Notes: generated by a model from the letters alone, not told the origin. 32,000 nt of DNA from Promethearchaeota archaeon (GCA_016933055.1 JAFGBS010000009.1:330001-362000); one strand, 5' to 3'. Counted from the stretch's first letter, positions 125 to 15,585 are shown. Numbers and translations are program-made.

Positions 125-1051
125 TTAATCAGTACAATAAGGTGAAGATGAAAATTTACATGCACAATCAGGCGATTCCATTTCAATTGTACAATGTACC
201 GAGATTTTCGTTAAATAGGATTTAATTTTTTGTTTAAGTTCTTCTAATTCTTCCATCTCACAATATTTGGCAACAGCATGCAAACTGATAATATTATTAA
301 TTCCATCCAAAGACCAAATGTGCAAATCATGGATATTTTCCACACCTTTTATGGATTCTAATTCCTTTATCAATCTCTCAGATTCCTCCGTTGGATTAGC
401 TAGTAATAATATTTTGAAGATTTCTACAATGTATTTACCGGCTTTATATAATATATATGCTGAAAGTATAAGAGACATGATTGTGTCAATGATGGGTAAG
501 TCTACAAATAACAATACTGTACCAGTAATTAGAACGCCTATCCACCCGATCATGTCTTCTAAAAGATGCAAGGAGACAATTTTTTCAGACATTATACGAT
601 TTTTTTTCTTCAGAACAAGCCATAACATAGAGGAACCATTTACTAGTACTCCAATGATAGCAATAGTGAAAATCCATATTCCCGATACTTCCGCTGGTTG
701 AAGTAAGCGTAAAAATGCCTCTCTAATGGCAAAAACTGAACCGATAATTAAGGTCATGGAAGAAACCATTGCTCCCAGTAACGTGAAACGCTTATATCCG
801 AAAGTATAATGTTGATTGGCTTCCTTTTTACTGATTTTTATCATAACCCATAATACAAGTATGGATAAGGTATCTCCCAAATCATGAAATGAGTCTGAAA
901 ATAACGCTGCACTATTAGAGATATACGCTCCACCGAATTCCAGAACTGTAAAAAACATATTCAAAATTAATGGAACTAATAATAATTTAGCAGAATCTAC
1001 CGGAATATCATGATTTGAATGTCCATGATAGTGGTCATGAACGTGGTCCAT
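125..1051 (-). CDS. czcD: Cation diffusion facilitator (CDF) Zn/Co/Cd efflux transporter, CzcD-like
   Basis: His-rich N-terminus (MDHVHDHYHGHSNHD), HxxxD metal sites (SFHDLGD, LHLLED), YTFGYKR loop, C-terminal HDLHIWSLDG domain. Start moved from the ORF-track 1126 to ATG 1051 because AAGGAGGT (1056-1063) lies 4 nt upstream. Confidence 0.9.
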   Translation of the reverse strand: MDHVHDHYHGHSNHDIPVDSAKLLLVPLILNMFFTVLEFGGAYISNSAALFSDSFHDLGDTLSILVLWVMIKISKKEANQHYTFGYKRFTLLGAMVSSMTLIIGSVFAIREAFLRLLQPAEVSGIWIFTIAIIGVLVNGSSMLWLVLKKKNRIMSEKIVSLHLLEDMIGWIGVLITGTVLLFVDLPIIDTIMSLILSAYILYKAGKYIVEIFKILLLANPTEESERLIKELESIKGVENIHDLHIWSLDGINNIISLHAVAKYCEMEELEELKQKIKSYLTKISVHCTIEMESPDCACKFSSSPYCTD

Positions 1052-1134
1052 AGGTACCTCCTTATATAACGAAATTAATAGTTTGTTATTAGTCCCAATA
1101 ATGGTTAACAATCTTTTCAATTTCAATTTATAAT

Positions 1135-2085
1135 CTATATAACAAATGTGTCAAACTTAAATCCTTTAAAAAAACTAGCTGCAGATAATTTTTCCTTATC
1201 ATTCATCCAGGAATCTCTCGGATAACTGACTGGATGATCAATTGAGTGTGCTTTTTCGATCCAAAGGGGATTATAAGGGAGTAAATCTATTAAAGATATA
1301 TTAAGACTTTTTAAGAATTGAGCAATTTCTTTCAAATTATCAGATTTAATCGTGATGTGTGGTATTAACGGGATTCTTGGGACTAGCAAGGGTTTGGATG
1401 CGGGTATTTTTAGTTCACTATTATTTTTCGGAAGAGTAACTAGACCCTCTTTCACCAACTGTTTTAAATTTTCAAGAATGGTTACATTATCCACACCACA
1501 ATATTGAATATGTTTGTTTGAATTCATAATTTTTACGTCATAATATATGAATTGAACCTGTTCAAGTATCTTCTTTGTTTGAGAATTTAATGGAAATAAT
1601 CCACAAGTTTCAATTGCAATTCCTATATTAATTTCCCTCAATCTCATGATAAGATTTAGAATAAATTCAGGGAACATCATAGGTTCACCACCAGAGAGGG
1701 ATATACCTCCATTGGAATTTCTATAAAATATCATATTCGATCTAAATCGTTCTACTAGTTCATTTACTGTGTATAGTTTACCTGCAACTGAAAATACGTC
1801 TGCGGGACAATCTATGGTGCAGCATTGGGATAATATACATACAGATCTATTCAATACCATATTAGGATAATTAAATGCATCATTCGGACAATGCACGAAA
1901 CACTGAGGAGTGCAATGAATACAATTTTTCGGTTGATACACTAATTCGGGGTTGACATTTTGTGCCTCAGGATTCTGGCACCATACGCACTTTAGAGCGC
2001 ACCCCTTAAAGAATATCACACTTCGGATCCCTATCCCATCATCGAGTGAATTTTCTTTTATGTCAACAATATAAGGGACTTTCAT
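1135..2085 (-). CDS. Glycyl-radical enzyme activating enzyme (radical SAM, long form with ferredoxin-like insertion)
   Basis: DDGIGIRSVIFFKGCALKCVWCQNPE (CxxxCxxC), Cys-rich insertion CIHCTPQCFVHCP / CILSQCCTIDCP, GGISLSGGEP, AIETCG; 8 nt downstream of the GRE gene. Confidence 0.93.
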   Translation of the reverse strand: MKVPYIVDIKENSLDDGIGIRSVIFFKGCALKCVWCQNPEAQNVNPELVYQPKNCIHCTPQCFVHCPNDAFNYPNMVLNRSVCILSQCCTIDCPADVFSVAGKLYTVNELVERFRSNMIFYRNSNGGISLSGGEPMMFPEFILNLIMRLREINIGIAIETCGLFPLNSQTKKILEQVQFIYYDVKIMNSNKHIQYCGVDNVTILENLKQLVKEGLVTLPKNNSELKIPASKPLLVPRIPLIPHITIKSDNLKEIAQFLKSLNISLIDLLPYNPLWIEKAHSIDHPVSYPRDSWMNDKEKLSAASFFKGFKFDTFVI

Positions 2086-2093
2086 TGTAACTC

Positions 2094-5033
2094 CTATCTG
2101 AATTGATATCGCTCCAAGATCTCCATTTGCATGGTTTTGTTCAGTGATATGAAATAGGCATTGTATCCACTAACACGAATCATAAGCCATCGGTAATTTT
2201 CGGGATGCACCATTGCATCACGTAACATCTCTGAAGTAACTACATTAAATTGAATCTGTAACCCTGATAAATCAAAGTAGGATTTACTATAATCCGTAAA
2301 ATGCTGAACCGCAGTTTTATGCGGATCATTTGGTCCGGGTACTAATTTGACATTAAATGCGAGATTATTTGGAGTTTTCAAGTGGTCAATAGCAGCGACA
2401 GTTTTGATATTTTGGATGAGTTGGTCGGAGGAACCAGCTGAGGGTGTAATGCCTGGAGTAAAAGCTTTCCCACGCAAGCGTCCAGATGGGAGAGCACCCG
2501 ACAGTTTACCAAAAGCACTATGATTTGACATAGACCAAAATCCAACCATATATCTCCCCCCTCTGTAATTTTCGTGCTGGTAGTATTCATTATAAAGAAA
2601 ATCAACAAGATCATGAGCTAAACTCATTAGATCGGGATTATCTCCGGATCCAAATTTGGGTAGATTTGAAATGCGTTGAAGAATCACCTTATCTTCATTA
2701 TGAGAGAAATTTCTATCTAATATTTTTTTCAATGAGTATAAATCCAAAATTTTATCTTCATACACTAATTTTTTAATTGAATATAAGGAATCAATCACAT
2801 CGGTTAATGCCACTAACGCTACACCTGTGGAGTTATAGTGTGCACCCCCATCAACGACATCAGTTGCGGTTTCCACACAGTCCTCAATCATAGTAGAGAG
2901 AAAAGGTGTGGGATGATACTTTTGATGCATTATCCCACAATTATTGTTATATTCGACAGTGTGAGCGATCATATTCCCCATCTGCTTTTTATATCCATGT
3001 ACGACACTTTTAAATGTAGGGAAATGTTCGTTTGTAAATTCTCCCGTTGTTAATCCGACTTGAGGATGAATTAAAGGATGGTATCCATTTCCAAACAGCA
3101 TTTCTAATGGAGCAACAAGGTTTACCATAAGACATCCTGTGTGTCCGAAGTGTTTCCCGACACTAGTTGGTTCAACACACCCAGTAGCTGCCCAATTGTT
3201 TGCATCTTGTTCCGAAAATCCATGTACTTTCTGAACGGTTTCAATCATCAATTTGTCATTATGAATGCTTGGCGTAGACGTGGTATTGATGTTTACTTCA
3301 CATAACCGAGCGAGGTATTCATGAGAATTGAAATCTGGATGATATTTTGCATTTACGTTGGGATCCCGAATTGATAACATTTCGGTAACCTTCAAAAATA
3401 TGTAAGTGAGATCATTTACTGCATTTTTACCATTCACTGTAATCCCTCCAAGAGTGAGTGCTTGATCAGAGGAAGATCCTCCAAAAAGTTTATTTCCCAC
3501 ATTTGGAACCATTGGTAAATGATCTTGCGCTTTAAGATAAAAAGCTCCAATTAATTCAATAACTTTTCGAATGTATTGGTCTTGTTCAGATTCAGAGGAT
3601 AAGGTTTCCATATCTTTGAGAAAATAGGGATATAAAACTTGATCCAAGCGACCTAATGATAATCCTGCGTTCATATTTTCTTGATGTAGACATAGCCATG
3701 TAATCCAGATTGCAGTAATTGCTTCCCGAAAATTGCCTGCGGCTTTATTAGGAACTTGCTTAAGAACAGTATAAATTTCTGGCAAATTATTAGCATTCGA
3801 ATCATTTACATTTTTTATTTTTTTTAATTGCGATTCAACCTCTAATTTTAAATTTTCACCATATATTTGCATTCCTGCAAGGCATGCTTTCATCCCGGTA
3901 TAATACTGTTTTTTCTTTTCATTTTCAGTAATCAAAATTCTTTCATTAAATTCCTCAATTAAATTATTTAATCCATTATCTAAAATGACTGAAAAATTAG
4001 GTATGGTATGGCTTATGGCTTGGGTTTTCCATTCGAAGAAAAGGCTGAAGAATTCTTCCATCCGTTGAGATTTCGGATTATTAAAATGTGAACGAGCCAA
4101 CTCTCGTATGTTTCTATCCATCCAATAAGGATATACATATTTATTGAGGAGTTCAGCATCTTCTTCACTGATATGATAAGGATTTAACTCTCGACTCTGC
4201 ATGGTTGCGAGTTCTGGCCACATTCCTACTCCACCAAACTCTGGAAACAGTAAAACTCCAAGTTTTTTACTGGTAGTGCTTCCAGGAAGTAGGTCTCCTT
4301 CAAAGATTCTTGGAGTTTTATGGGATAAAAGGTATTTTAGCATCAAACCTTGACGCTCGCCAGCTTCCCATTCTGTTCCGTCTAATTTTCTCTCGAATCC
4401 ATTTTGCTTGAAAAATTGCGTTATAAGTTTTGCCCGTTCGGTGCAGAAATGGGCATGTGTAGAGAACCACTCATTTTTCATCCTCTCCAGAATTGGGAAA
4501 TCACGGAGCTTATATCTACCGAGGTAGGGATCTTTTAGAAACTGAACACCATCAACTTTTCTATCCAGTATCAGGTTTTCTTTCATTTTTATTTTCTCTT
4601 CTTCTTCTGTGATCTTTGTCGGAGGAGGGAAATTTTTGGATAGTTTCTTTTTTGGTTTGGTTGGAAAAATAGTAGAGAGGTAACTGAATTTACTAAGATG
4701 TGAGAGACTTCCAATATAGTATAACTCTCCCGAAAGTAACATATCTAATGATTGATCTGCAGAAATCGTTGCGGCGTACGCCATAGTTTTCTTATCTTTA
4801 TAAACTAAAGTTGTATCTGGATTTGGATGATGTTTAAGCAATTTCATGCGTCCATTATGAAATTTGATATAGATATTTGCATCTTCTAATCGAGTTGTTA
4901 TTCTCATTATAACATTGAACGCATAATCTTCTTCTGGGATGTAAATTTCCTCCCGAAACTTTGAAAATAATCGGAATTTTAAAGCCATTAACCGCAATCC
5001 CAATTTGAAGATAAAAATAGATGCCATAAGCAT
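2094..5033 (-). CDS. Glycyl radical enzyme (PFL2/dehydratase-eliminase class) with N-terminal SCP2-like domain
   Basis: Gly loop RVSGY (2163-2177), single-Cys loop GCVEP (3168-3182), SLGRLDQVLYPY, ALTLGG; ~120-aa N-terminal extension with an SCP2-like pattern. True start may be a later Met (e.g. MALKF, 4988). Confidence 0.9.
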   Translation of the reverse strand: MLMASIFIFKLGLRLMALKFRLFSKFREEIYIPEEDYAFNVIMRITTRLEDANIYIKFHNGRMKLLKHHPNPDTTLVYKDKKTMAYAATISADQSLDMLLSGELYYIGSLSHLSKFSYLSTIFPTKPKKKLSKNFPPPTKITEEEEKIKMKENLILDRKVDGVQFLKDPYLGRYKLRDFPILERMKNEWFSTHAHFCTERAKLITQFFKQNGFERKLDGTEWEAGERQGLMLKYLLSHKTPRIFEGDLLPGSTTSKKLGVLLFPEFGGVGMWPELATMQSRELNPYHISEEDAELLNKYVYPYWMDRNIRELARSHFNNPKSQRMEEFFSLFFEWKTQAISHTIPNFSVILDNGLNNLIEEFNERILITENEKKKQYYTGMKACLAGMQIYGENLKLEVESQLKKIKNVNDSNANNLPEIYTVLKQVPNKAAGNFREAITAIWITWLCLHQENMNAGLSLGRLDQVLYPYFLKDMETLSSESEQDQYIRKVIELIGAFYLKAQDHLPMVPNVGNKLFGGSSSDQALTLGGITVNGKNAVNDLTYIFLKVTEMLSIRDPNVNAKYHPDFNSHEYLARLCEVNINTTSTPSIHNDKLMIETVQKVHGFSEQDANNWAATGCVEPTSVGKHFGHTGCLMVNLVAPLEMLFGNGYHPLIHPQVGLTTGEFTNEHFPTFKSVVHGYKKQMGNMIAHTVEYNNNCGIMHQKYHPTPFLSTMIEDCVETATDVVDGGAHYNSTGVALVALTDVIDSLYSIKKLVYEDKILDLYSLKKILDRNFSHNEDKVILQRISNLPKFGSGDNPDLMSLAHDLVDFLYNEYYQHENYRGGRYMVGFWSMSNHSAFGKLSGALPSGRLRGKAFTPGITPSAGSSDQLIQNIKTVAAIDHLKTPNNLAFNVKLVPGPNDPHKTAVQHFTDYSKSYFDLSGLQIQFNVVTSEMLRDAMVHPENYRWLMIRVSGYNAYFISLNKTMQMEILERYQFR

Positions 5034-5725: not shown

Positions 5726-6478
5726 CTATTTTTCCTTAATGGGTACGTCAACAACGTCTTGGGATTGTTTGATTGTAAAAAAGAATCTTTGTTGATAACG
5801 CTCCAAAATCCGAATCGTTTGTTCACCAAAAACGATTAGAAAAATGAAATTAGACAAGGCATGAGCAATATCAAATGGAATACTCTGGATATTCGTAGCT
5901 ATGAATGATGCGAGGGATATAGGCCTGATTAACAACCATGACCATATATTCATAAACCATCCATAAAGAAATGCGAGGAGAAAACCCATTAATGCTAATA
6001 TCCATTTATCGGGTTGTTTATTTCTTGTCTTCCCTAACGCACCTCCTAGTAATCCGAAAAATCCCCAAGCAAATATTTGATAGATTGTCCAGACACCTTG
6101 TCCGAGAAATATATTAGATAAAAACGCAGTATTCCCTCCAATTATGAATCCGATTAATGGACCAAATACATAACCTGCGCAAAGAACTAAGAAAGAAACG
6201 GGTTGGACACTGGGAATTCCAACAAAAGGGATCCTAGCTACTGCAGCGAAGGCACTATATATAGCAATTAGGGCAATTTCTTTCGAAGAAATATCCGATT
6301 CTTCAAATTTAAAATATATTGCAAGGATGAATAACAATAAGTAAATCATCCCAATGAGAATTAATGCTAAACTGGGAATTTCATTAACATTGATTTGCTG
6401 ATTAAAAATAATTGGGATCAGGAATGTTAAAATGCCAATTGTGAGTATAAATATGAATAGAAAATTACTGCGTTTCGT
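5726..6478 (-). CDS. ECF transporter substrate-binding (S) component, CbrT (cobalamin)-like
   Basis: KEIALIAIYSAFAAVARIPF, VQPVSFLV, SNIFLGQGVWTIYQIFAWG, DIAHALSN. ORF track starts at ATG 6349, but the frame is open upstream with two more hydrophobic helices up to an SD-preceded ACG at 6478. Confidence 0.8.
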   Translation of the reverse strand, partial: TKRSNFLFIFILTIGILTFLIPIIFNQQINVNEIPSLALILIGMIYLLLFILAIYFKFEESDISSKEIALIAIYSAFAAVARIPFVGIPSVQPVSFLVLCAGYVFGPLIGFIIGGNTAFLSNIFLGQGVWTIYQIFAWGFFGLLGGALGKTRNKQPDKWILALMGFLLAFLYGWFMNIWSWLLIRPISLASFIATNIQSIPFDIAHALSNFIFLIVFGEQTIRILERYQQRFFFTIKQSQDVVDVPIKEK

Positions 6479-8150
6479 TTCTAAAAACCTCCAATAAATT
6501 TTCTGCAGTCAATACGAAATCTGGAATTTCTTTAAAATTCTTTACTAAACGATTGATTTGTGGGATGAATGGTTCATAGTTCGGTAGAATCTTATGTGGT
6601 AGACCATCATCCACTATCCCACCTTCAGATAAAATAATAACTCTATGAGCATATTTGGCTACTGTTTCTATGTCATGGGTCACCAAGATTACGGAATTTC
6701 CATTGGAGCAATAATTATTTAAAAACCTCATGAAATCGGTTTTTTGTCCAATATCCAATCCATGAGTAGGTTCATCTAACACAAGAAGTGTTGGTTTTAA
6801 AAGCAATACCGTGGCTAATGCTGCTCGTTGTTGCTCCCCAATTGATAAAAATCTACCATATCTAGATGAGTAACGCGTCAAATCAAAAGTTTTTAGGCAG
6901 TTTCGGATCGCAGATTCTCGCGTTCTTTCATCTTTATATCCATAATTTCGCAGAACAAAATCAAATTCGTCGTGAAGATTATCTTGATAAAATTGAATCG
7001 ATGGATTTTGGAAGATATACCCGACTTTTCTCGCCATTTCTGCCACTGATTTTGAATTGGCATTTTCTCCATTAAGAAGAATTTTCCCTTTGACTGGTCT
7101 TAGCAATCCATTCATATGCTTAAGTAAAGTGGTCTTTCCACTACCATTTCTCCCCATTATTGCAATAAATTCACCTGGATATATATTCAGAGAAACCTCT
7201 CGTAAAATCCAATCCGAAGATGTTGAATACTTAAACCAAATATCAGATAACTCTAATAGGGGATTTGAATCTGGATTTGGAGGAGTGTATGGATTAAATT
7301 TAAAATCCTTACGGGGTGTATGGATTTTTAAAATTTCTGTCATGGCACTTATGGCATCATGTAATGTTAATGGTGTAAATGTTTGCCTTATTTGTGAAGG
7401 AAAATTTTGAAAAAAATGAACAATGGGGGGTGAAAATGACCGAGCTTCTGGAAATTTATATATCACTTCGGTGGGGGAAGAATCCGCTATTATTTTTCCC
7501 TTTTTCATTAAAACTATACGATCAATATAATCGATTACCCGTTCTAAACGATGTTCTGTAATAATAATGGTTTTCTGATGTTTTTGATTTAAACTGACTA
7601 ATAATTCCATTAATTCCTTCGCTGCGTAGGGATCTAATTCTGATGTTGGTTCATCCATCAATAAAATTTCAGGACCCATTACTAAAATAGAAGCAAGAGC
7701 AACTTTTTGTTTTTCACCCCCCGATAATGTAGTAATTTTTCTGGATAAAAGATTAGTAAATCCCAGATCTTCTGCAACTTCCTGAATTCGTGAGTCCATT
7801 TTGTCTTTTGGGAATCCAAGATTTTCCATACCAAATGCAATTTCTGAATCAACACTACTCATAAATAACTGATTTTCTGGATTCTGAAACACCGTTCCCA
7901 CATGTTGGGATAATTTACGAGGGCTAAGTTCAAACGGATTTTCCCCTAAAACTTGAATGTTACCAGTCAAAAGACCGCCATAAAAATGAGGTATTAATCC
8001 ATTTACAGCTCTCATTAAGGTGGTTTTTCCACATCCGGATTCTCCTGTAATTAAAATGAAATCCCCTTTACTTACCTGCAATGATATCCCCTCTAAAGCA
8101 GGGGAAGGTGTTTTATTGTACGTAAAGCTCAAATTCTCGATCCGTATCAC
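6465..8150 (-). CDS. ecfA: ECF transporter fused A-A' ATPase
   Basis: Two NBDs: GESGCGKTT / LSGGEKQKV / LLMDEPT and GRNGSGKTT / LSIGEQQR / LVLDEPT; VFQNPENQLF Q-loop; GTG start overlaps the ecfT stop (GTGA) with GGAGG upstream. Confidence 0.93.
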   Translation of the reverse strand: MIRIENLSFTYNKTPSPALEGISLQVSKGDFILITGESGCGKTTLMRAVNGLIPHFYGGLLTGNIQVLGENPFELSPRKLSQHVGTVFQNPENQLFMSSVDSEIAFGMENLGFPKDKMDSRIQEVAEDLGFTNLLSRKITTLSGGEKQKVALASILVMGPEILLMDEPTSELDPYAAKELMELLVSLNQKHQKTIIITEHRLERVIDYIDRIVLMKKGKIIADSSPTEVIYKFPEARSFSPPIVHFFQNFPSQIRQTFTPLTLHDAISAMTEILKIHTPRKDFKFNPYTPPNPDSNPLLELSDIWFKYSTSSDWILREVSLNIYPGEFIAIMGRNGSGKTTLLKHMNGLLRPVKGKILLNGENANSKSVAEMARKVGYIFQNPSIQFYQDNLHDEFDFVLRNYGYKDERTRESAIRNCLKTFDLTRYSSRYGRFLSIGEQQRAALATVLLLKPTLLVLDEPTHGLDIGQKTDFMRFLNNYCSNGNSVILVTHDIETVAKYAHRVIILSEGGIVDDGLPHKILPNYEPFIPQINRLVKNFKEIPDFVLTAENLLEVFRNETQ

Positions 8151-9055
8151 CTTTGATTTCCTCCCATCTGTAATAAGAGAATCTGACTTATTCCCACAAT
8201 AAGAATACCCATTACGAACATAATATCATAAAACTGAATGGTTGGAATTGTTAGCTCAGGTAATATTTGAAAGATTCCGAACCCCGCGATTTTCAAACCC
8301 ACTAATGCTGCAAGCAATCCAAAAATTATAAAGACATTTAGATAATCTGTAAATCTAAATCGTATGCGAGAATAAAAAGTTCGTTTCTTTTCTCTATTAA
8401 AAGCACGTGTTTCTAATGCTTCCGATACCTGAATTGAACGCTCTAAGGAATTTGTGAGTAAAGGAAGTAATAAGACCATTTTTCTTCTGATTTTTTGAAA
8501 AAATCTGCCTTTTTCTAATTCAAATCCACGTGCTTTTTGCACATCACTGATGATCTCCAAATCCCCTTTTAAAAGGGGAAAAAATCGAAGGGAAAGTGTG
8601 ATTAAAAGCACTATTATATATGGTAACCTTAATTTTATTAAAGTTTGCATTAATTGATCGGTATCTATAAGGAGATTAAACAAAATAAAACTATAAATAA
8701 CTATCAAAAGTTGAAAAGATGTTATGAAACTTAAGATCAATGCGTTCCATGTTATAATAAATGATCCCAATACAGGTACCTTCTCATAATAAACGATAAT
8801 ATTATTACCTTGCCGATTTAATAGAGTATACAAAATTATCAGAATAAAAACCATGATAAAATAATATCTGAGAGATCTCATCGATTCTTTAAACTTTTTT
8901 GCAATGATAGACAAGATAATGAGGTTAAGGAATAAAATTATGAGATATAAAGGATGATTGAACAGAAAGGAGAAAATAAAATAACTGATTAAAATAAAAA
9001 ACTTAACCAATGCATTCGTCCGGGCGATTTTATTAGGGGATGATGAGTAGGTCAA
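8147..9055 (-). CDS. ecfT: ECF transporter transmembrane T component
   Basis: Hydrophobic N-terminal half, LSLRFFP, coupling-helix motifs QKARG and LETRA; adjacent to ECF ATPase and S component. Confidence 0.9.
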   Translation of the reverse strand: MTYSSSPNKIARTNALVKFFILISYFIFSFLFNHPLYLIILFLNLIILSIIAKKFKESMRSLRYYFIMVFILIILYTLLNRQGNNIIVYYEKVPVLGSFIITWNALILSFITSFQLLIVIYSFILFNLLIDTDQLMQTLIKLRLPYIIVLLITLSLRFFPLLKGDLEIISDVQKARGFELEKGRFFQKIRRKMVLLLPLLTNSLERSIQVSEALETRAFNREKKRTFYSRIRFRFTDYLNVFIIFGLLAALVGLKIAGFGIFQILPELTIPTIQFYDIMFVMGILIVGISQILLLQMGGNQR

Positions 9056-9859: not shown

Positions 9860-11071
9860 ATGAATTCTCTGGAAAGAGTAAAGGCAGCGCTTCATTTCTC
9901 AGGTCCTGATAAAGTTCCTTTGTTTTCTCAGAATTTAAAAACCGATGTATTGCCCTTGGCTATGCTTCCATCAAAGAATTGGCATCCAGGACATATACCT
10001 GAAGAAGAAGGCCTTTTTCCTCATCCCTTTGATGATTTTGTGGTAAATTTGGGTTTATATAAGTGGAAAAAACCCGATTGGGCAAAAAAAAACCCTAAAT
10101 ACAAAAAAAATAACTGGTTGAAATATCCTCGTGAAGAAATCGATGAATGGGGCTGCATATGGAATCGCTCGGGAGGAAATCAGACTATGGGACATCCAGG
10201 CCGAGCATCCATGCCCAGTTGGGGGGATTTAGATAAATACTTAGAATCTCATACTCCTGATCCCACAGATCGGACTAGATATTCCCTTTTTCTCAAATTA
10301 GGGAAAATAATAAGCCTTTTAGGATTTAAAAAGTATCGTGTTTGTGTTTTAGGTCACGTAGGTCCATCTCAAACTGCAAGTATGATAAGAGGTTTTAGCC
10401 CTTACCTCGTTGACCATGCCAAACATCCAAACGAATTAAAACGCTTGCTAGCTCATCTTACAGAGTTTTATGTGGAATGCATTAAAAATTGGATAAAATT
10501 TAGTGCAAAACCTCATGGATTCTTGCTTGTAGACGATCTGGGAGAGCAGTCAGGGCCCTTTTTCAGTCCCCGAACTTTCAAAAACTTTTACGAACCTGTC
10601 TACCGTACCATATTTCAAACTGCCCATGACTATGGATGTGAAACGCATCTGCATTGCTGTGGTAAAGTAGATAAACTTTTACCATCGTTGATTGAGTGGG
10701 GTTTAGATGCTATAGAGTTCGATAGTCCCCGTATGTCGGGATATACAGATCTCAAGCCGTATGTTGGGAAGATTATGTTTTGGGCATGTGCGAATATTCA
10801 ATCCATATATGTCAATGGGACTCCCGATGAAGTCAGGAAGGAGGTTTGGCATATGATGCGGAATCTTGGCACTAAAGAAGGAGGATTCGGGCTCTATCCA
10901 TATCCCCAACCCTATCATATTCACGTTCCTAAGAAGAACCAAAAAGCATTATATGAGGGTTTAAAGGAATTTGGTGACTATACCAAAATTCCCCCTTATT
11001 GGTGGGACTATCCAACTCCTGATGAGTGGGATAGGTATACAGTACCAGCACTTCCTCCTCTGAGTCCATAA
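9860..11071 (+). CDS. Uroporphyrinogen decarboxylase / MtaA-CmuA superfamily protein (URO-D-like, unknown function)
   Basis: MNSLERVKAALHFSGPDKVP, DEWGCIW, DDLGEQSGPFFSP, LHCCG(K)V, WGLDAIE. Confidence 0.85.
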   Translation: MNSLERVKAALHFSGPDKVPLFSQNLKTDVLPLAMLPSKNWHPGHIPEEEGLFPHPFDDFVVNLGLYKWKKPDWAKKNPKYKKNNWLKYPREEIDEWGCIWNRSGGNQTMGHPGRASMPSWGDLDKYLESHTPDPTDRTRYSLFLKLGKIISLLGFKKYRVCVLGHVGPSQTASMIRGFSPYLVDHAKHPNELKRLLAHLTEFYVECIKNWIKFSAKPHGFLLVDDLGEQSGPFFSPRTFKNFYEPVYRTIFQTAHDYGCETHLHCCGKVDKLLPSLIEWGLDAIEFDSPRMSGYTDLKPYVGKIMFWACANIQSIYVNGTPDEVRKEVWHMMRNLGTKEGGFGLYPYPQPYHIHVPKKNQKALYEGLKEFGDYTKIPPYWWDYPTPDEWDRYTVPALPPLSP

Positions 11072-11250: not shown

Positions 11251-12498
11251 TTATGCATGATCTGCGAGAGATTTTGCTAATATTTCTCCAATATCCAAAA
11301 CAGGATCCCCATCATTAAACATGAATCCTTCTTCACATGCGGGACATGCTGAAACGATGTACTCTGCTCCTGTTTCTTTTAATTGGGCCACTCTTTGCTT
11401 TCCTATGGCATCAGATATTTCAGGATGATGCACATGACTAACTCCGCCTCTGCCACAACACTGGGTGATATCCCCATGTAAATATACTTCACGAAAATCC
11501 AGATCGGGAATCAGAGAAAATATGAACCGTGCATTTTCTATGTCGATTGTACCCATTTTTCCTCTGCTAGAAATACAGGGATCATGATAGGTGATTGAAA
11601 GGGGGACGGACTTTTCAGGTTTGATTTTCCCTTCTTCCAAAAGTTTACGATAAAATTCTACAGAAGTATATACCTTATAATTATGCTTGCATCCTAGAGT
11701 TTTGTAAGTATTACGGATTGAGTTAGTACATGCAGGGCAATCGGTAACTATGATTTTCGCTCCGGCTTTATTAAATAATGCTATATTTTTCTCTGCGAAA
11801 TATTTTGCAGAATTTAGGAGGCCTAATGTATGTAAAGGTCCTCCACAGCAAGTTCTTTCATCTGCATACATACAAAAGCGAATACCTGCCTTTTGGAGGA
11901 TTTTAATATTCGCTTTTACTGCTGCAGGCTTTTTCTCCGCCATTACACAACCTGTGTAGTAGAACACTTCTGGATTTTCCATATTTACATTCAAATCTTC
12001 AATCTGAGTGAATGTATCTTGTTCAAATGCTGTTTGTTTCTCCATCACCCTGGCATCAAACTCTTTGACTCCGGGGATATAAATTTCTCTGTTAATTAAA
12101 TCCGCTCGGACTTGGGTTAGTAAATCTCCCGTAGAGATGTCCATTGGGCACCAATTTCTACATCCGTCGCAGTTTGTGCACATATATGCGACTTCTGCCG
12201 TATGCAAGTCGGTCATGTCTAAATTTTTCCTCTCCATATGGTAAGAAATACGAGATTTTGTGGCTGGTGCATACATTTCCTTGTGCGTTACCCGAAGGGA
12301 TGGACACTCAAACCTACACATATTGGGACACAAAGCACATTTGAGTAATTCTTTCATATCTACATGAGTTTCCTTCACATAATAGAAATCTTTTTCGTGT
12401 CGAAATCCTTGAATAGTTTTTTTAATATCCTTAAAAGAACCCGAAAAAAATACTTTCACTATCCATTTATATTTCTTAATTTTAGCTAATAATCCCAA
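11251..12498 (-). CDS. CCG-domain Fe-S protein (GlpC/GlcF/HdrD-like electron-transfer subunit)
   Basis: Two 4Fe-4S motifs (CALCPNMCRFECP, CTNCDGCRNWCP), YYTGC, two CCG motifs, TDCPAC, TYHDPC, SACPAC. Confidence 0.88.
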   Translation of the reverse strand: MGLLAKIKKYKWIVKVFFSGSFKDIKKTIQGFRHEKDFYYVKETHVDMKELLKCALCPNMCRFECPSLRVTHKEMYAPATKSRISYHMERKNLDMTDLHTAEVAYMCTNCDGCRNWCPMDISTGDLLTQVRADLINREIYIPGVKEFDARVMEKQTAFEQDTFTQIEDLNVNMENPEVFYYTGCVMAEKKPAAVKANIKILQKAGIRFCMYADERTCCGGPLHTLGLLNSAKYFAEKNIALFNKAGAKIIVTDCPACTNSIRNTYKTLGCKHNYKVYTSVEFYRKLLEEGKIKPEKSVPLSITYHDPCISSRGKMGTIDIENARFIFSLIPDLDFREVYLHGDITQCCGRGGVSHVHHPEISDAIGKQRVAQLKETGAEYIVSACPACEEGFMFNDGDPVLDIGEILAKSLADHA

Positions 12499-12510
12499 AA
12501 TGCAACTCTC

Positions 12511-13971
12511 CTATTCTCGTTCCGGTTCATCATATAATTTTCCAGGATTCATTATGTTGTTAGGATCTATGACATGTTTGATTTTCTTCATTAAATCTAA
12601 TACTGGACCATGTTCGTCTCGCATCCAACGTGCTCTATTTATACCAATACCATGATGATGGGATATCGATCCTCCTGAATTCAGTGTAGCTATCATAGCT
12701 GCATCCCATGCACTATTGTAGAATTCCTCTGGGCTTTTTCCTTCAGGAACAATTCCACTAAATGTAAAGTAAAAACACACACCATTGGGATAAAAATGAG
12801 AAGCATGACCCGATGCAAGTAATAAACCATCGAGTTTTTTCAATTCATTGATAACGGAGTGATATAAATGAACCGCATCGTCCCACATGCATGAAATCTC
12901 AATTGTGTCTGCAATTTGCCCCTTTGGCATATAAACGGAGGTTTCTTTGACATTAAATCGGGTTTCAAACCAATGATCCACTGGATTTTTTCCACAATCT
13001 GTTCCATTGCATTCCAAGCATGTTTTTCGAATCTCTGAGATTTCAAGCTCAACCAAAGATGAAATGGGTGCCTCGCAGACAAAAATTACCATCAGCCTAT
13101 TTTTTGCTTGTGGTTCATTATAGAAATGCCGTTCAGTTTCCTGTTTATCGTAAATGCGAACAACAGCAGGATAAATTTGCTTTTGTAAAATTAACTGAGT
13201 AGCCTTTAAACTGTCTTCTATAGCATCAAACGCAAAGGATACACCTTGTTGCTTTTCAGGTAGTGGCCACATTATCATAGTTGCTTGAGTGACTATACCT
13301 AGTGTGCCCTCGGAACTTAAAAATAAACGTTCAATTTGCGGTCCGTTGGATGCACGAGGGTATAATTTTGTATCTATAATTTCTCCATTAGGGAGAACCA
13401 CTCGCATACTTAAAACAATATCTTCAATTTTACCGTATTTAGTCGAGAATTGACCTGCTGCTCGATGAGCAATCCAACCTCCTACAGTAGAAGTATGGAA
13501 ACTTTGCGGTACATGACCGATAAGAAATCCCTTCTGTTCTAATTGTCTTTCTAGCCATTTACCATTAGCACCAGTTTGTACGGTAACTGTTAAGTTTTGT
13601 TTGTTAACTTCAATTATGTCAGTCATTCTTTTCATATCGAGCATGATCCCCCCGTATACGGGGATGGCTGCGCCTACAACACCTGATCCCTCTCCATAAG
13701 GAACCACAGGTATTTTTTTTCGATTTGCACATATTAATATCCGGGATATTTCTTCCTCATTTTCTGGCCAGACAATAACATGGGGTAATCCGGGGACCTT
13801 ATTTTCCATGATCCAGCGATTTGTAATTAATTGATAGTCTTTTGAATACGCAACAAGATCAGCTTCTTCAGTAGAAACCCAATCGGGTCCGACAATTTCT
13901 GATAATTCAGTAACTAAAGCGTTCAAATCATCAATTTTAACCCGTTTTTTATACACAACATCAAACTTCAT
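12511..13971 (-). CDS. FAD-binding oxidoreductase (VAO/PCMH family), alkyl-dihydroxyacetonephosphate synthase-like
   Basis: PYGEGSGV, GHVPQSFHTSTVGGWIAHRAAGQFSTKYGKIED, SSEGTLGIVT, PAVVRIYD, CFYFTF, SHHHGIG (HHH at 12652-12660), IDPNNIMNPGKL. Confidence 0.88.
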   Translation of the reverse strand: MKFDVVYKKRVKIDDLNALVTELSEIVGPDWVSTEEADLVAYSKDYQLITNRWIMENKVPGLPHVIVWPENEEEISRILICANRKKIPVVPYGEGSGVVGAAIPVYGGIMLDMKRMTDIIEVNKQNLTVTVQTGANGKWLERQLEQKGFLIGHVPQSFHTSTVGGWIAHRAAGQFSTKYGKIEDIVLSMRVVLPNGEIIDTKLYPRASNGPQIERLFLSSEGTLGIVTQATMIMWPLPEKQQGVSFAFDAIEDSLKATQLILQKQIYPAVVRIYDKQETERHFYNEPQAKNRLMVIFVCEAPISSLVELEISEIRKTCLECNGTDCGKNPVDHWFETRFNVKETSVYMPKGQIADTIEISCMWDDAVHLYHSVINELKKLDGLLLASGHASHFYPNGVCFYFTFSGIVPEGKSPEEFYNSAWDAAMIATLNSGGSISHHHGIGINRARWMRDEHGPVLDLMKKIKHVIDPNNIMNPGKLYDEPERE

Positions 13972-14103: not shown

Positions 14104-14463
14104 ATGACTTATCTTGAAGATATTCCCGCATTAATTTATACGATGTTATACACTCATAATAAGGACGGTAGACTCCGTAAAGCTACGGAACACAAAAAAC
14201 TCAGTATTTTATTTGATTTTCCGGACTTTCCTCCCGCAGCTTTATTAAAGATACAAAATGGTAATTATGAAGTCTTAAGTGTAGAAAATCCCGAGGGTAT
14301 CTCGGCGGATGCAATCATAAAAGGGAATTTTGAAGATATTGTCGAGTTATCTGGAGGCTTTGGAAGGGGGATCAGTCTTCTCTTAACGGGAAAAGTGAAA
14401 ATAAAAGGGCTTCTAAAAGCGATAACGTTGCTTAAAATCTTGGGGGAAAAGGAGGTGTTGTGA
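14104..14463 (+). CDS. Stand-alone SCP2 (sterol carrier protein 2) lipid-binding domain protein
   Basis: LLKIQNGNYEV...ADAIIKGNFEDIVEL...LLLTGKVKIKG...LLKIL is the SCP2 pattern. Confidence 0.8.
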   Translation: MTYLEDIPALIYTMLYTHNKDGRLRKATEHKKLSILFDFPDFPPAALLKIQNGNYEVLSVENPEGISADAIIKGNFEDIVELSGGFGRGISLLLTGKVKIKGLLKAITLLKILGEKEVL

Positions 14464-15585
14464 TTGAGGGAAATTATGACAAGTTATGAACGTTCTATTG
14501 CTGCAATTGAACATAAATCCGTTGATCGGTTTCCTATTATATCCCTAGGTGTCGATTATGCTTTTTACAATGAATTTATGGAGGAAATTGGTTTCACACC
14601 AGAAGAAGTAAAGCAATATGCAACTGATGGGATATTAACTGGACCTCCTTGGTCACATGGTGTGAATGTAAAATTAGGTGTGGATATCGATTGGACTTCT
14701 ATGAGAGCCAGACAACATTATGATCATGAGACCCATCAAATTCTAGATACATTTGGAGGAATTGATAAAGTTGTGGTGAATGATAGTGGTATTCCCCATT
14801 TGTGGTATGTTAAACCATTCCTTACGTCCAAGGAAAAAATTAAAGACTGGTGGAATTTGGGGAGACCGAAACCTTACACGAACGCTATGATCAAACCTTT
14901 AGTAAAAATTATGCAGACGCTTATAGATAAATACCAAATGTTAAGTATGATTGGCTTACCAGGTCCATGGGAAAACTTGCATATGTCAATTGGAATGGCA
15001 CAAGTTGCGAAATTTTGTCGAAAAGATCAACGATTTCTCGAGGAGATTTTGGAAAAAAATTTTGAAGTTCAAGGAGATGGTTTGGAGCGTATAATGAAAT
15101 TAGGAAATCCTCCCGTTGTCATGTGTGGCGATGACTATGGATTCAATCAAGGTCTCCAAATGCCTATTAAATATTGGAGACAATTTATCAAGCCCATCTT
15201 AAAAAGGTATGTAGAAATCGTACATAGTTATGGATCTAAATTTCTATTACACTCTTGTGGTAGCATAGGAGATATTTTTTCCGACTTAATAGAAATCGGA
15301 GTGGAGGGTGTGGAATCTCTGCAACCAACGATAAATGATCTTGTGACGCTCAAACACAAATACGGGGATAAAATCGCATTATTAGGAACGATAGATGATA
15401 CTAATCTCTTGGTGAGGGGGACAACCGAGCATGTTTGGAGTGAAGTAACGAATTCAGTTAAGTTATTGGGAAAGGAAAGTGGGTATTTGCCGGGTGCAAC
15501 AAATACGCTCCTTAATGCGAAAGTTAGTAATGTGAAGACTATGATTGAAGCAATTCAAAGTATGAATCCTCAATATGTAATTTAA
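14464..15585 (+). CDS. Uroporphyrinogen decarboxylase / MtaA-CmuA superfamily protein
   Basis: MTSYERSIAAIEHKSVDRFP, DTFGG, CGDDYGFNQGLQM, LLHSCG, IGVEGVESLQP, LLGTID. TTG start 6 nt after GGAGGTG (14451-14457). Confidence 0.87.
   Translation: MREIMTSYERSIAAIEHKSVDRFPIISLGVDYAFYNEFMEEIGFTPEEVKQYATDGILTGPPWSHGVNVKLGVDIDWTSMRARQHYDHETHQILDTFGGIDKVVVNDSGIPHLWYVKPFLTSKEKIKDWWNLGRPKPYTNAMIKPLVKIMQTLIDKYQMLSMIGLPGPWENLHMSIGMAQVAKFCRKDQRFLEEILEKNFEVQGDGLERIMKLGNPPVVMCGDDYGFNQGLQMPIKYWRQFIKPILKRYVEIVHSYGSKFLLHSCGSIGDIFSDLIEIGVEGVESLQPTINDLVTLKHKYGDKIALLGTIDDTNLLVRGTTEHVWSEVTNSVKLLGKESGYLPGATNTLLNAKVSNVKTMIEAIQSMNPQYVI

Follow-up and report, generated by a model that had tools for sequence, protein, structure and literature searches.

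B12-independent glycerol and propanediol dehydratases are glycyl radical enzymes (GREs) that carry out a 1,2-elimination and yield an aldehyde. In glycerol dehydratase, Cys433 abstracts the hydrogen atom, Glu435 deprotonates the C1 hydroxyl and His164 is proposed to protonate the leaving C2 hydroxyl; the motif on the Cys loop, CXE, is defined in the June 2026 review of the superfamily (PMC13450708). The same review describes a conserved GRE substrate channel. In benzylsuccinate synthase (BSS) and (1-methylalkyl)succinate synthase, the beta subunits bind the catalytic subunit over this channel and are thought to gate hydrophobic substrates (PMC13450708). Similar archaeal GREs, including those of Asgard archaea (Hermodarchaeota), have been given an alkylsuccinate-synthase-type reading (PMC8163825). 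Here, we describe a GRE of 979 residues, P0001, which is encoded in a 32,000-nucleotide stretch of a Promethearchaeota archaeon genome (GCA_016933055.1, JAFGBS010000009.1:330001-362000), hereafter the window. Its barrel is of the diol-dehydratase type, and an N-terminal module, predicted to fold as SCP2, precedes it. Our literature search found no paper linking a GRE to SCP2, and the June 2026 review is silent on SCP2. This agrees with the original prediction, made from the sequence of the window, that no characterised GRE is known to carry SCP2.

The catalytic core is, judged by its motifs and fold, an eliminase-type single-Cys CXE GRE, and PFL is excluded. Among solved structures, the closest by sequence is A. 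fulgidus PFL2 (E 2.8e-98), followed by glycerol dehydratase (1.4e-92) and propanediol dehydratase (1.2e-91); the X-succinate synthases are sequence relatives at E 2e-47 to 9e-39. When folds are compared, the barrel core reaches Z values of about 45.5 to 2f3o, 1r8w, 5i2g and 9rco, 43-44 to CutC, PflD and HypD, 36-38 to the X-succinate synthases and 33 to PFL. The glycerol dehydratase of C. butyricum (1R8W) and the propanediol dehydratases (R. inulinivorans 5I2A/5I2G; 9RCO) superpose on P0001 with an rmsd of 1.8-1.9 over about 780 residues. They share with it the CXE loop, a histidine at the His164 position, the RVxGY loop and a long-form activase as partner. P0001 differs from them in that the identity is only about 28% and in that it carries about 150 extra N-terminal residues, made up of the SCP2 fold and a linker; in the fold alignment, the N-terminus of the ordinary dehydratases starts to align at about residue 153. 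The other close solved match, Archaeoglobus fulgidus PFL2/PflD (2F3O), is a GRE of unknown function and substrate. It is archaeal like P0001, has a GCVE loop and is the best solved sequence match (Z 45.7), but with 776 residues it lacks the SCP2 module.

Cys619, Glu621 and His342 of P0001 align with Cys433, Glu435 and His164 of glycerol dehydratase. All three are conserved across 118 full-length relatives (H342 in 118, C619 and E621 in 117 each), as are G956 (118) and W833 (117). The original prediction had placed a full GRE barrel with GCVEP and RVSGY behind the N-terminal module and a Lys/Pro/Glu linker, and had called the core a single-Cys eliminase, not PFL. The barrel and the glycyl radical domain match Pfam PF02901 and PF01228, both loops were located, and the linker occupies residues 123-152. 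The retained CXE and histidine, together with a Z of 45.5 versus 33 for PFL, bear out the class assignment.

Within this class, P0001 corresponds to none of the named functions. It scores 448.1 bits with TIGR01774 (PFL2-3, the glycerol/propanediol dehydratase subfamily), below the cut-off of 678.2. Scores with the NCBIfam equivalogs, each followed by its cut-off, are 359/1100 for HypD, 312/1050 for CutC, 300/1000 for HpsG/HpfG, 243/1100 for IAD and 206/1150 for HPAD. Because all equivalog scores and that of TIGR01774 are far below the cut-offs, we assigned none of these functions, and P0001 was rejected as HypD, CutC, HpsG/HpfG, IAD or HPAD.

The pocket differs from that of the dehydratases. 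H281/S282, Y339, D447 and Y640, which we take to be substrate-pocket residues of glycerol dehydratase, correspond to A456/G457, S520, G633 and W833 in P0001; position 633 is Asn in most family members. The segment FGGSSSD is found where glycerol dehydratase has FGGYPMY, and 2F3O reads FSGQATNQ where P0001 has FGGSSSDQ. Each of the seven positions of FGGSSSD is conserved in at least 104 of the 118 relatives, and six of them in at least 110. A different pocket had been anticipated from FGGSSSDQAL at this site, which is right, and other pocket positions are replaced too. The dehydratase sequence used for that comparison, FAGYPMFQNL, is incorrect, as it mixes FGGYPMYQNL of glycerol dehydratase with FAGYSLFQNL of propanediol dehydratase. 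The conserved polar residues of the pocket are Ser520-Ser522, Asp523, His628, His631 and His838. Therefore, only the polar head of a substrate could enter this Ser/Asp/His-rich site. Because the pocket is so well conserved, the sequences imply one substrate class across the whole SCP2-fused GRE family.

Residues of about 5-122 of P0001 are predicted to fold as SCP2. An AlphaFold2 (AF2) model of residues 1-200 has a pLDDT of 55.8 overall and 70-80 at residues 40-100. When this model was compared with 48,161 PDB representatives, the ten best matches were all SCP2 (Z 10.7-7.7 over 100-111 residues), and the next match reached a Z of 5.5. The best Foldseek matches in the PDB, with a probability of 1.00, are UbiJ-SCP2, the C-domains of alkylsulfatases, MFE-2 SCP2L and A. 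fulgidus SCP2. In the full-length AF2 model, the domain has a pLDDT of about 94. A language-model search also led to SCP2 clusters (0.92, 181 shared features). We also built a domain profile from six Asgard orthologues and scored it against 1.84 billion representatives. It found 70 proteins, about ten of which are N-termini of other PFL-like enzymes; among the short proteins, 15 of 51 carry Pfam SCP2 and one carries Alkyl_sulf_C.

Direct sequence tests of residues 1-160/185 gave no match. The Pfam SCP2 model (PF02036) has no match at E <= 1 on residues 1-160, NCBIfam has none on the same residues, and phmmer of the N-terminus against PDB sequences returned nothing at E <= 10. The family member P0027 reaches 18.2 bits with Pfam SCP2, below the cut-off of 21.3. 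Hence, the assignment rests on the fold and on the profile links. An N-terminal SCP2 module, as originally predicted, is upheld by the solved fold matches and by a profile that reaches Pfam-SCP2 proteins. The Pfam search suggested there as a check did not find SCP2. The extent needs correction, from about 4670-4930 to about 4668-5021.

In other solved enzyme fusions (alkylsulfatases, MFE-2, UbiJ), the SCP2 fold is associated with hydrophobic ligands. Compared with the SCP2 domains of the alkylsulfatases SdsA1/Pisa1, MFE-2 SCP2L and UbiJ, the module of P0001 has the same fold (TM by target 0.5-0.65), but it is only 9-19% identical and does not match the Pfam SCP2 model. It also differs from these cases in its partner, which is a radical enzyme, and in its N-terminal position.

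A stand-alone SCP2 protein is encoded elsewhere in the window (14104-14463, plus strand; 119 residues; Pfam SCP2 E 1.4e-5). BLASTP found no similarity between it and the GRE module. Its gene abuts that of a URO-D-family protein (14464-15585, plus strand), which is a methyltransferase-type protein, and a second URO-D-like gene lies at 9860-11071.

The SCP2 domain is predicted to be held in place on the catalytic barrel, beside the loops bearing the family-specific pocket residues. The full-length AF2 model, built on 67 relatives, has a mean pLDDT of 92.5 and a pTM of 0.93. Residues 1-125 and 160-979 were also folded as two chains. This gave a score of 0.89, with 0.02 for the best of three controls; of the solved complexes, 58 of 80 reach that mark, as do 2 of 110 mismatched pairs, a calibration that is only rough because the alignment was our own. 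Three runs agree on at least 94% of the contacts, with a partner pLDDT of at least 85; because both chains come from a single protein, this test is not independent of the AF2 model. In the complex model, the interface involves residues 28-39, 77-79 and 92-122 of the SCP2 side and residues 269-281, 297-329, 511-516, 654-657 and 843-844 of the core. W272, E274, R281, P302, E311 and R314 of the core and L100, G108 and N109 of SCP2 are invariant interface residues in the family. The contacts at 511-516 and 843-844 flank the family-specific pocket segments FGGSSSD (517-523) and GFWSMSNH (831-838).

In two metagenome contigs, a separate SCP2-like gene is directly followed by a core gene whose product is 46-50% identical to the core of P0001. 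Therefore, the SCP2 module is a discrete partner of the core. The beta subunits of BSS and (1-methylalkyl)succinate synthase are likewise small accessory modules encoded by separate genes, but they are Fe-S proteins with a fold unrelated to SCP2.

We propose, with moderate confidence, that P0001 is a radical 1,2-eliminase of a hydrophobic or amphiphilic substrate: it would react with the hydroxylated head while the docked SCP2 domain holds the tail, and it would form an aldehyde. The enzyme is most likely a dehydratase. The activase would put the radical on Gly956, from where it would move to Cys619. Cys619 would abstract a hydrogen atom from the carbinol carbon of the substrate. Glu621 would deprotonate the carbinol hydroxyl, and the adjacent leaving group, most likely another hydroxyl, would be protonated by His342. 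The 1,2-elimination should then yield an aldehyde, as in the B12-independent glycerol and propanediol dehydratases. Throughout, SCP2 would hold the hydrophobic tail of the amphiphile, and the polar head would enter the pocket lined by Ser, Asp and His. In many relatives, the aldehyde may be passed to an adjacent aldehyde:ferredoxin oxidoreductase (AOR) and on to enzymes of CoA metabolism and beta-oxidation. The analysis shows that the genes are intact and establishes the folds, the motifs, the predicted docking, the conservation across the family and the statistics of the gene neighbourhoods; from there, what kind of reaction is catalysed, that the substrate is hydrophobic and what SCP2 does are inferences.

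The SCP2-fused GRE is a member of a widespread family found in hundreds of genomes and not a rarity of this genome. More than 100 clusters of relatives with 975-1035 residues are 48-85% identical across the core. The whole family has the N-terminal domain, and the gap fraction at residues 11-123 is about 0. We confirmed at least 581 stretches of the family in species-representative genomes. The best 80 of these come from Asgard archaea, Desulfobacterota, Bacillota, Chloroflexota, Bdellovibrionota, Leptospirales and others; the Asgard hosts among them are Prometh-, Sigyn-, Hod-, Frey- and Jordarchaeia, and the cultured hosts among them are Desulfatibacillum alkenivorans and Acididesulfobacillus acetoxydans. 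Degraders of fatty acids and hydrocarbons, e.g., Syntrophomonas and Desulfatibacillum, are among the hosts. Of the Asgard-phylum genomes searched, 33 of 301 have the module, and most of these belong to three families.

We inferred a tree with FastTree and used the genome's three further GRE paralogues as its root; with a quick method and long outgroup branches, it is indicative only. In this tree, the SCP2-fused family holds together and the Asgard sequences fall into at least three clades. The copy in the window belongs to a small and divergent clade made up of Asgard sequences only. The largest of the Asgard clades is surrounded by Desulfobacterales sequences. The three paralogues (C11:22075-24192, C15:183101-185425 and C5:49197-51149) have 800-868 residues, are 28-31% identical to P0001 and lack the SCP2 module.

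Open reading frames (ORFs) within 7 kb of the GRE were called and clustered in 78 loci. The activase follows the GRE in 62 of them. AOR is the next commonest neighbour (18 loci). Its arrangement varies among the lineages that have it, which are Asgard archaea, Desulfobacterales (where it lies 25 nt behind the GRE), Bacteriovoracaceae, Syntrophomonas and Acididesulfobacillus. Enoyl-CoA hydratase (ECH) is found in 11 loci of Desulfobacterota, Dehalococcoidia and Asgard archaea, one of which also has an adjoining acyl-CoA dehydrogenase. SDR reductases are present in nine loci and TetR regulators in eight. The recurrent AOR, ECH and SDR genes fit an aldehyde-forming eliminase that feeds acid or CoA metabolism, and they do so without identifying the substrate.

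Several observations weigh against radical elimination on a hydrophobic substrate. The Pfam SCP2 model does not recognise the N-terminal module, as described above. The operon in the window and its own clade have no adjoining AOR, ECH or SDR gene; the neighbours are ECF transporter, HAD-fold and cation-efflux genes. Most AOR loci come from one Asgard clade, and AOR, SDR and ECH are common genes; for these reasons, the association is only semi-independent. Finally, the conserved pocket is polar and would suit a small polar substrate equally well.

A small polar substrate, such as a diol, a polyol or an amino- or sulfo-alcohol, is the first alternative; we regard it as doubtful, yet with an appreciable chance of being correct. 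Here, SCP2 would be an accessory cap and not a substrate carrier. It would cap or gate the channel, stabilise the glycyl radical domain or tether the enzyme to the membrane, in the manner of the beta subunits of BSS and methylalkylsuccinate synthase. The lining of the pocket by the conserved Ser520-Ser522, Asp523, His628, His631 and His838 is compatible with this, and the most conserved SCP2 residues, L100, G108 and N109, contact the core. Other GREs have small subunits lying over the channel (PMC13450708), and the two contigs with a separate SCP2-like gene show that this part can be encoded on its own. On the other hand, the ties of the SCP2 fold to hydrophobic ligands in alkylsulfatases, MFE-2 and UbiJ speak for a carrier, and the TetR, ECH and acyl-CoA dehydrogenase neighbours, together with the fatty-acid-degrading hosts, lean to hydrophobic substrates.

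In a second alternative, which we consider unlikely, the enzyme is a lyase that expels a group other than hydroxyl (an alkoxide, amine, phosphate or sulfonate) beta to the carbinol of a lipid head, in the way that CutC and IslA cleave small molecules. The same CXE chemistry operates in the C-N and C-S lyases that are named in the GRE review (PMC13450708) and are present among the solved matches. Apart from Cys, Glu and His, the pocket positions are unlike those of the dehydratases. A Zn-dependent phospholipase C is encoded downstream in four of the 78 loci, but all four belong to one closely related bacterial clade. Against a lyase, the invariant histidine occupies the site of glycerol dehydratase His164, which is proposed to protonate a leaving hydroxyl, and diol dehydratases are the nearest enzymes by both sequence and fold.

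Fumarate addition to hydrocarbons in the manner of alkyl- or benzylsuccinate synthase, with SCP2 delivering the alkane, is highly improbable: the literature annotates similar archaeal GREs in this way (A. fulgidus PflD, Hermodarchaeota; PMC8163825), A. fulgidus PFL2 is the nearest solved sequence, a hydrophobic carrier would suit alkanes and Desulfatibacillum has family members, but the fold is closer to eliminases (Z 45) than to X-succinate synthases (Z 36-38), the CXE and His set of eliminases is invariant, the recurrent AOR suggests an aldehyde and not a succinate adduct, and no ORFs for the small Fe-S beta and gamma subunits lie between or beside the two genes here or recur in the 78 loci.

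If P0001 and its relatives are radical 1,2-eliminases of amphiphilic substrates, glycerol lipids are one conceivable target. The family would then be the entry enzyme of an O2-independent breakdown of glycerol-ether or monoglyceride lipids, a specific proposal that we judge to be quite improbable. SCP2 would hold the alkyl chain, and the GRE would remove water from the free vicinal diol in a 1-O-alkyl(acyl)glycerol, giving a 3-alkoxypropanal. AOR would oxidise this aldehyde to the acid, which would then be activated with CoA. An enzyme of the enoyl-CoA hydratase type would eliminate the fatty alcohol from the beta-alkoxyacyl-CoA, and the ether bond would thus be broken without O2. The original prediction had named alkyl- or acyl-glycerols and hydroxylated acyl chains as possible substrates and had raised O2-free ether cleavage; the ether-lipid idea would be compatible with the AOR and ECH neighbours of the relatives, which do not identify the substrate. 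We know of no anaerobic enzyme for the O2-free cleavage of such an ether bond.

GRE and activase form an intact two-gene operon. The two ORFs are co-directional on the minus strand, with the activase downstream of the GRE after a gap of 8 nt, and they lie within a co-directional run of minus-strand genes from 9055 to 125 (Table 1). Because the GRE orthologues start at the third codon (M3), the true start is probably the ATG at 5027. A TTTAATTA-like box is located about 24 nt upstream of the GRE start, and from sequence alone the pair may have its own transcription. The ATG of the activase is preceded by GGAG. P0002 scores 239 bits with TIGR02494 (GRE-activating enzymes), above the cut-off of 174. 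It is of the long form because it has two further Cys clusters besides CxxxCxxC (C29/C33/C36). The original prediction had also named a long-form activase next to the GRE, and both the score and the three Cys clusters are in line with this.

Table 1 Features of the SCP2-fused GRE, its activase and the adjacent genes (positions in the window)
Feature	Position	Strand	Basis or remark
GRE gene P0001, 979 aa	2094-5033	-	ORF and translation; Pfam PFL-like and Gly_radical
SCP2-fold domain, residues 5-122	4668-5021	-	AF2 models, fold matches, profile links
Lys/Pro/Glu-rich linker, residues 123-152	4578-4667	-	Sequence; gappy and variable across the family
PFL-like ten-stranded barrel core, residues 183-842	2508-4487	-	Pfam PF02901, E 9.5e-148
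His342	4008-4010	-	Counterpart of glycerol dehydratase His164, which is proposed to protonate the leaving hydroxyl
FGGSSSD loop, residues 517-523	3465-3485	-	Family-specific pocket segment; FGGYPMY in glycerol dehydratase
Cys loop GCVEP (G618-P622)	3168-3182	-	Cys619, putative thiyl radical site; Glu621, putative general base of CXE
GFWSMSNH segment, residues 831-838	2520-2543	-	Trp833 at the position of glycerol dehydratase Tyr640
Glycyl radical domain, residues 858-962	2148-2462	-	Pfam PF01228, E 8e-22
RVSGY glycine loop with Gly956	2163-2177	-	Sequence; Gly956 in 118/118 of the family
Long-form GRE-activating radical SAM enzyme gene P0002, 316 aa	1135-2085	-	TIGR02494 and Cys motifs
ECF-transporter T component	8147-9055	-	
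ECF-transporter A component	6465-8150	-	
ECF-transporter S component	5726-6349	-	
HAD-fold protein, 211 aa	5076-5711	-	
Cation-efflux protein	125-1126	-	

The genes that surround the operon were considered as functional partners and rejected. The ECF transporter and cation-efflux genes recur only in close Asgard relatives and look like lineage synteny. The HAD-fold gene is missing from the locus of the nearest relative, and its product is not similar to the HAD hydrolase encoded upstream of a family member from Desulfobacterales. Its fold was recognised from an Atlas model (TM 0.80 to HAD IIIB/NT5C clusters). HAD phosphatases carry a DxD nucleophile motif; the N-terminus of this protein reads ALVIPSLEY at that site, and the protein may be inactive. 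Further away, at 11251-13971 on the minus strand, a FAD_binding_4/FAD-oxidase_C flavoprotein gene is followed by that of a CCG/4Fe-4S protein. This GlcD/GlcF-like pair is also found near the GRE in the contig of the closest relative (L005).

Two other arrangements occur among the relatives. In five Promethearchaeota loci (L037, L042, L049, L050, L055), tandem SCP2-fused GRE genes lie about 150-250 nt apart and are followed by one activase and AOR. In Chloroflexota (Dehalococcoidia/Chloroflexia; L035, L057, L070, L072), a 687-residue fusion of an AT3 acyltransferase with an SGNH hydrolase precedes the GRE; this lineage-specific neighbour may bear on the substrate.

The SCP2-fused GRE family is undescribed in the literature that we searched. 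Published work interprets similar Asgard GREs as alkylsuccinate synthases, a reading that the motifs do not support. To our knowledge, all characterised eliminase-type GREs act on small, water-soluble molecules. That hundreds of genomes of anaerobes encode a conserved family with a docked lipid-carrier fold suggests that radical chemistry extends to substrates insoluble in water; the hosts include Asgard archaea, sulfate reducers, Dehalococcoidia and syntrophs that degrade fatty acids. Little is known about how lipids, long-chain diols and ether lipids are degraded in anoxic sediments and digesters. The family offers a concrete candidate enzyme for anoxic lipid breakdown, for which cultured hosts exist, and its SCP2 domain would be an accessory module of a kind new to the GRE class.

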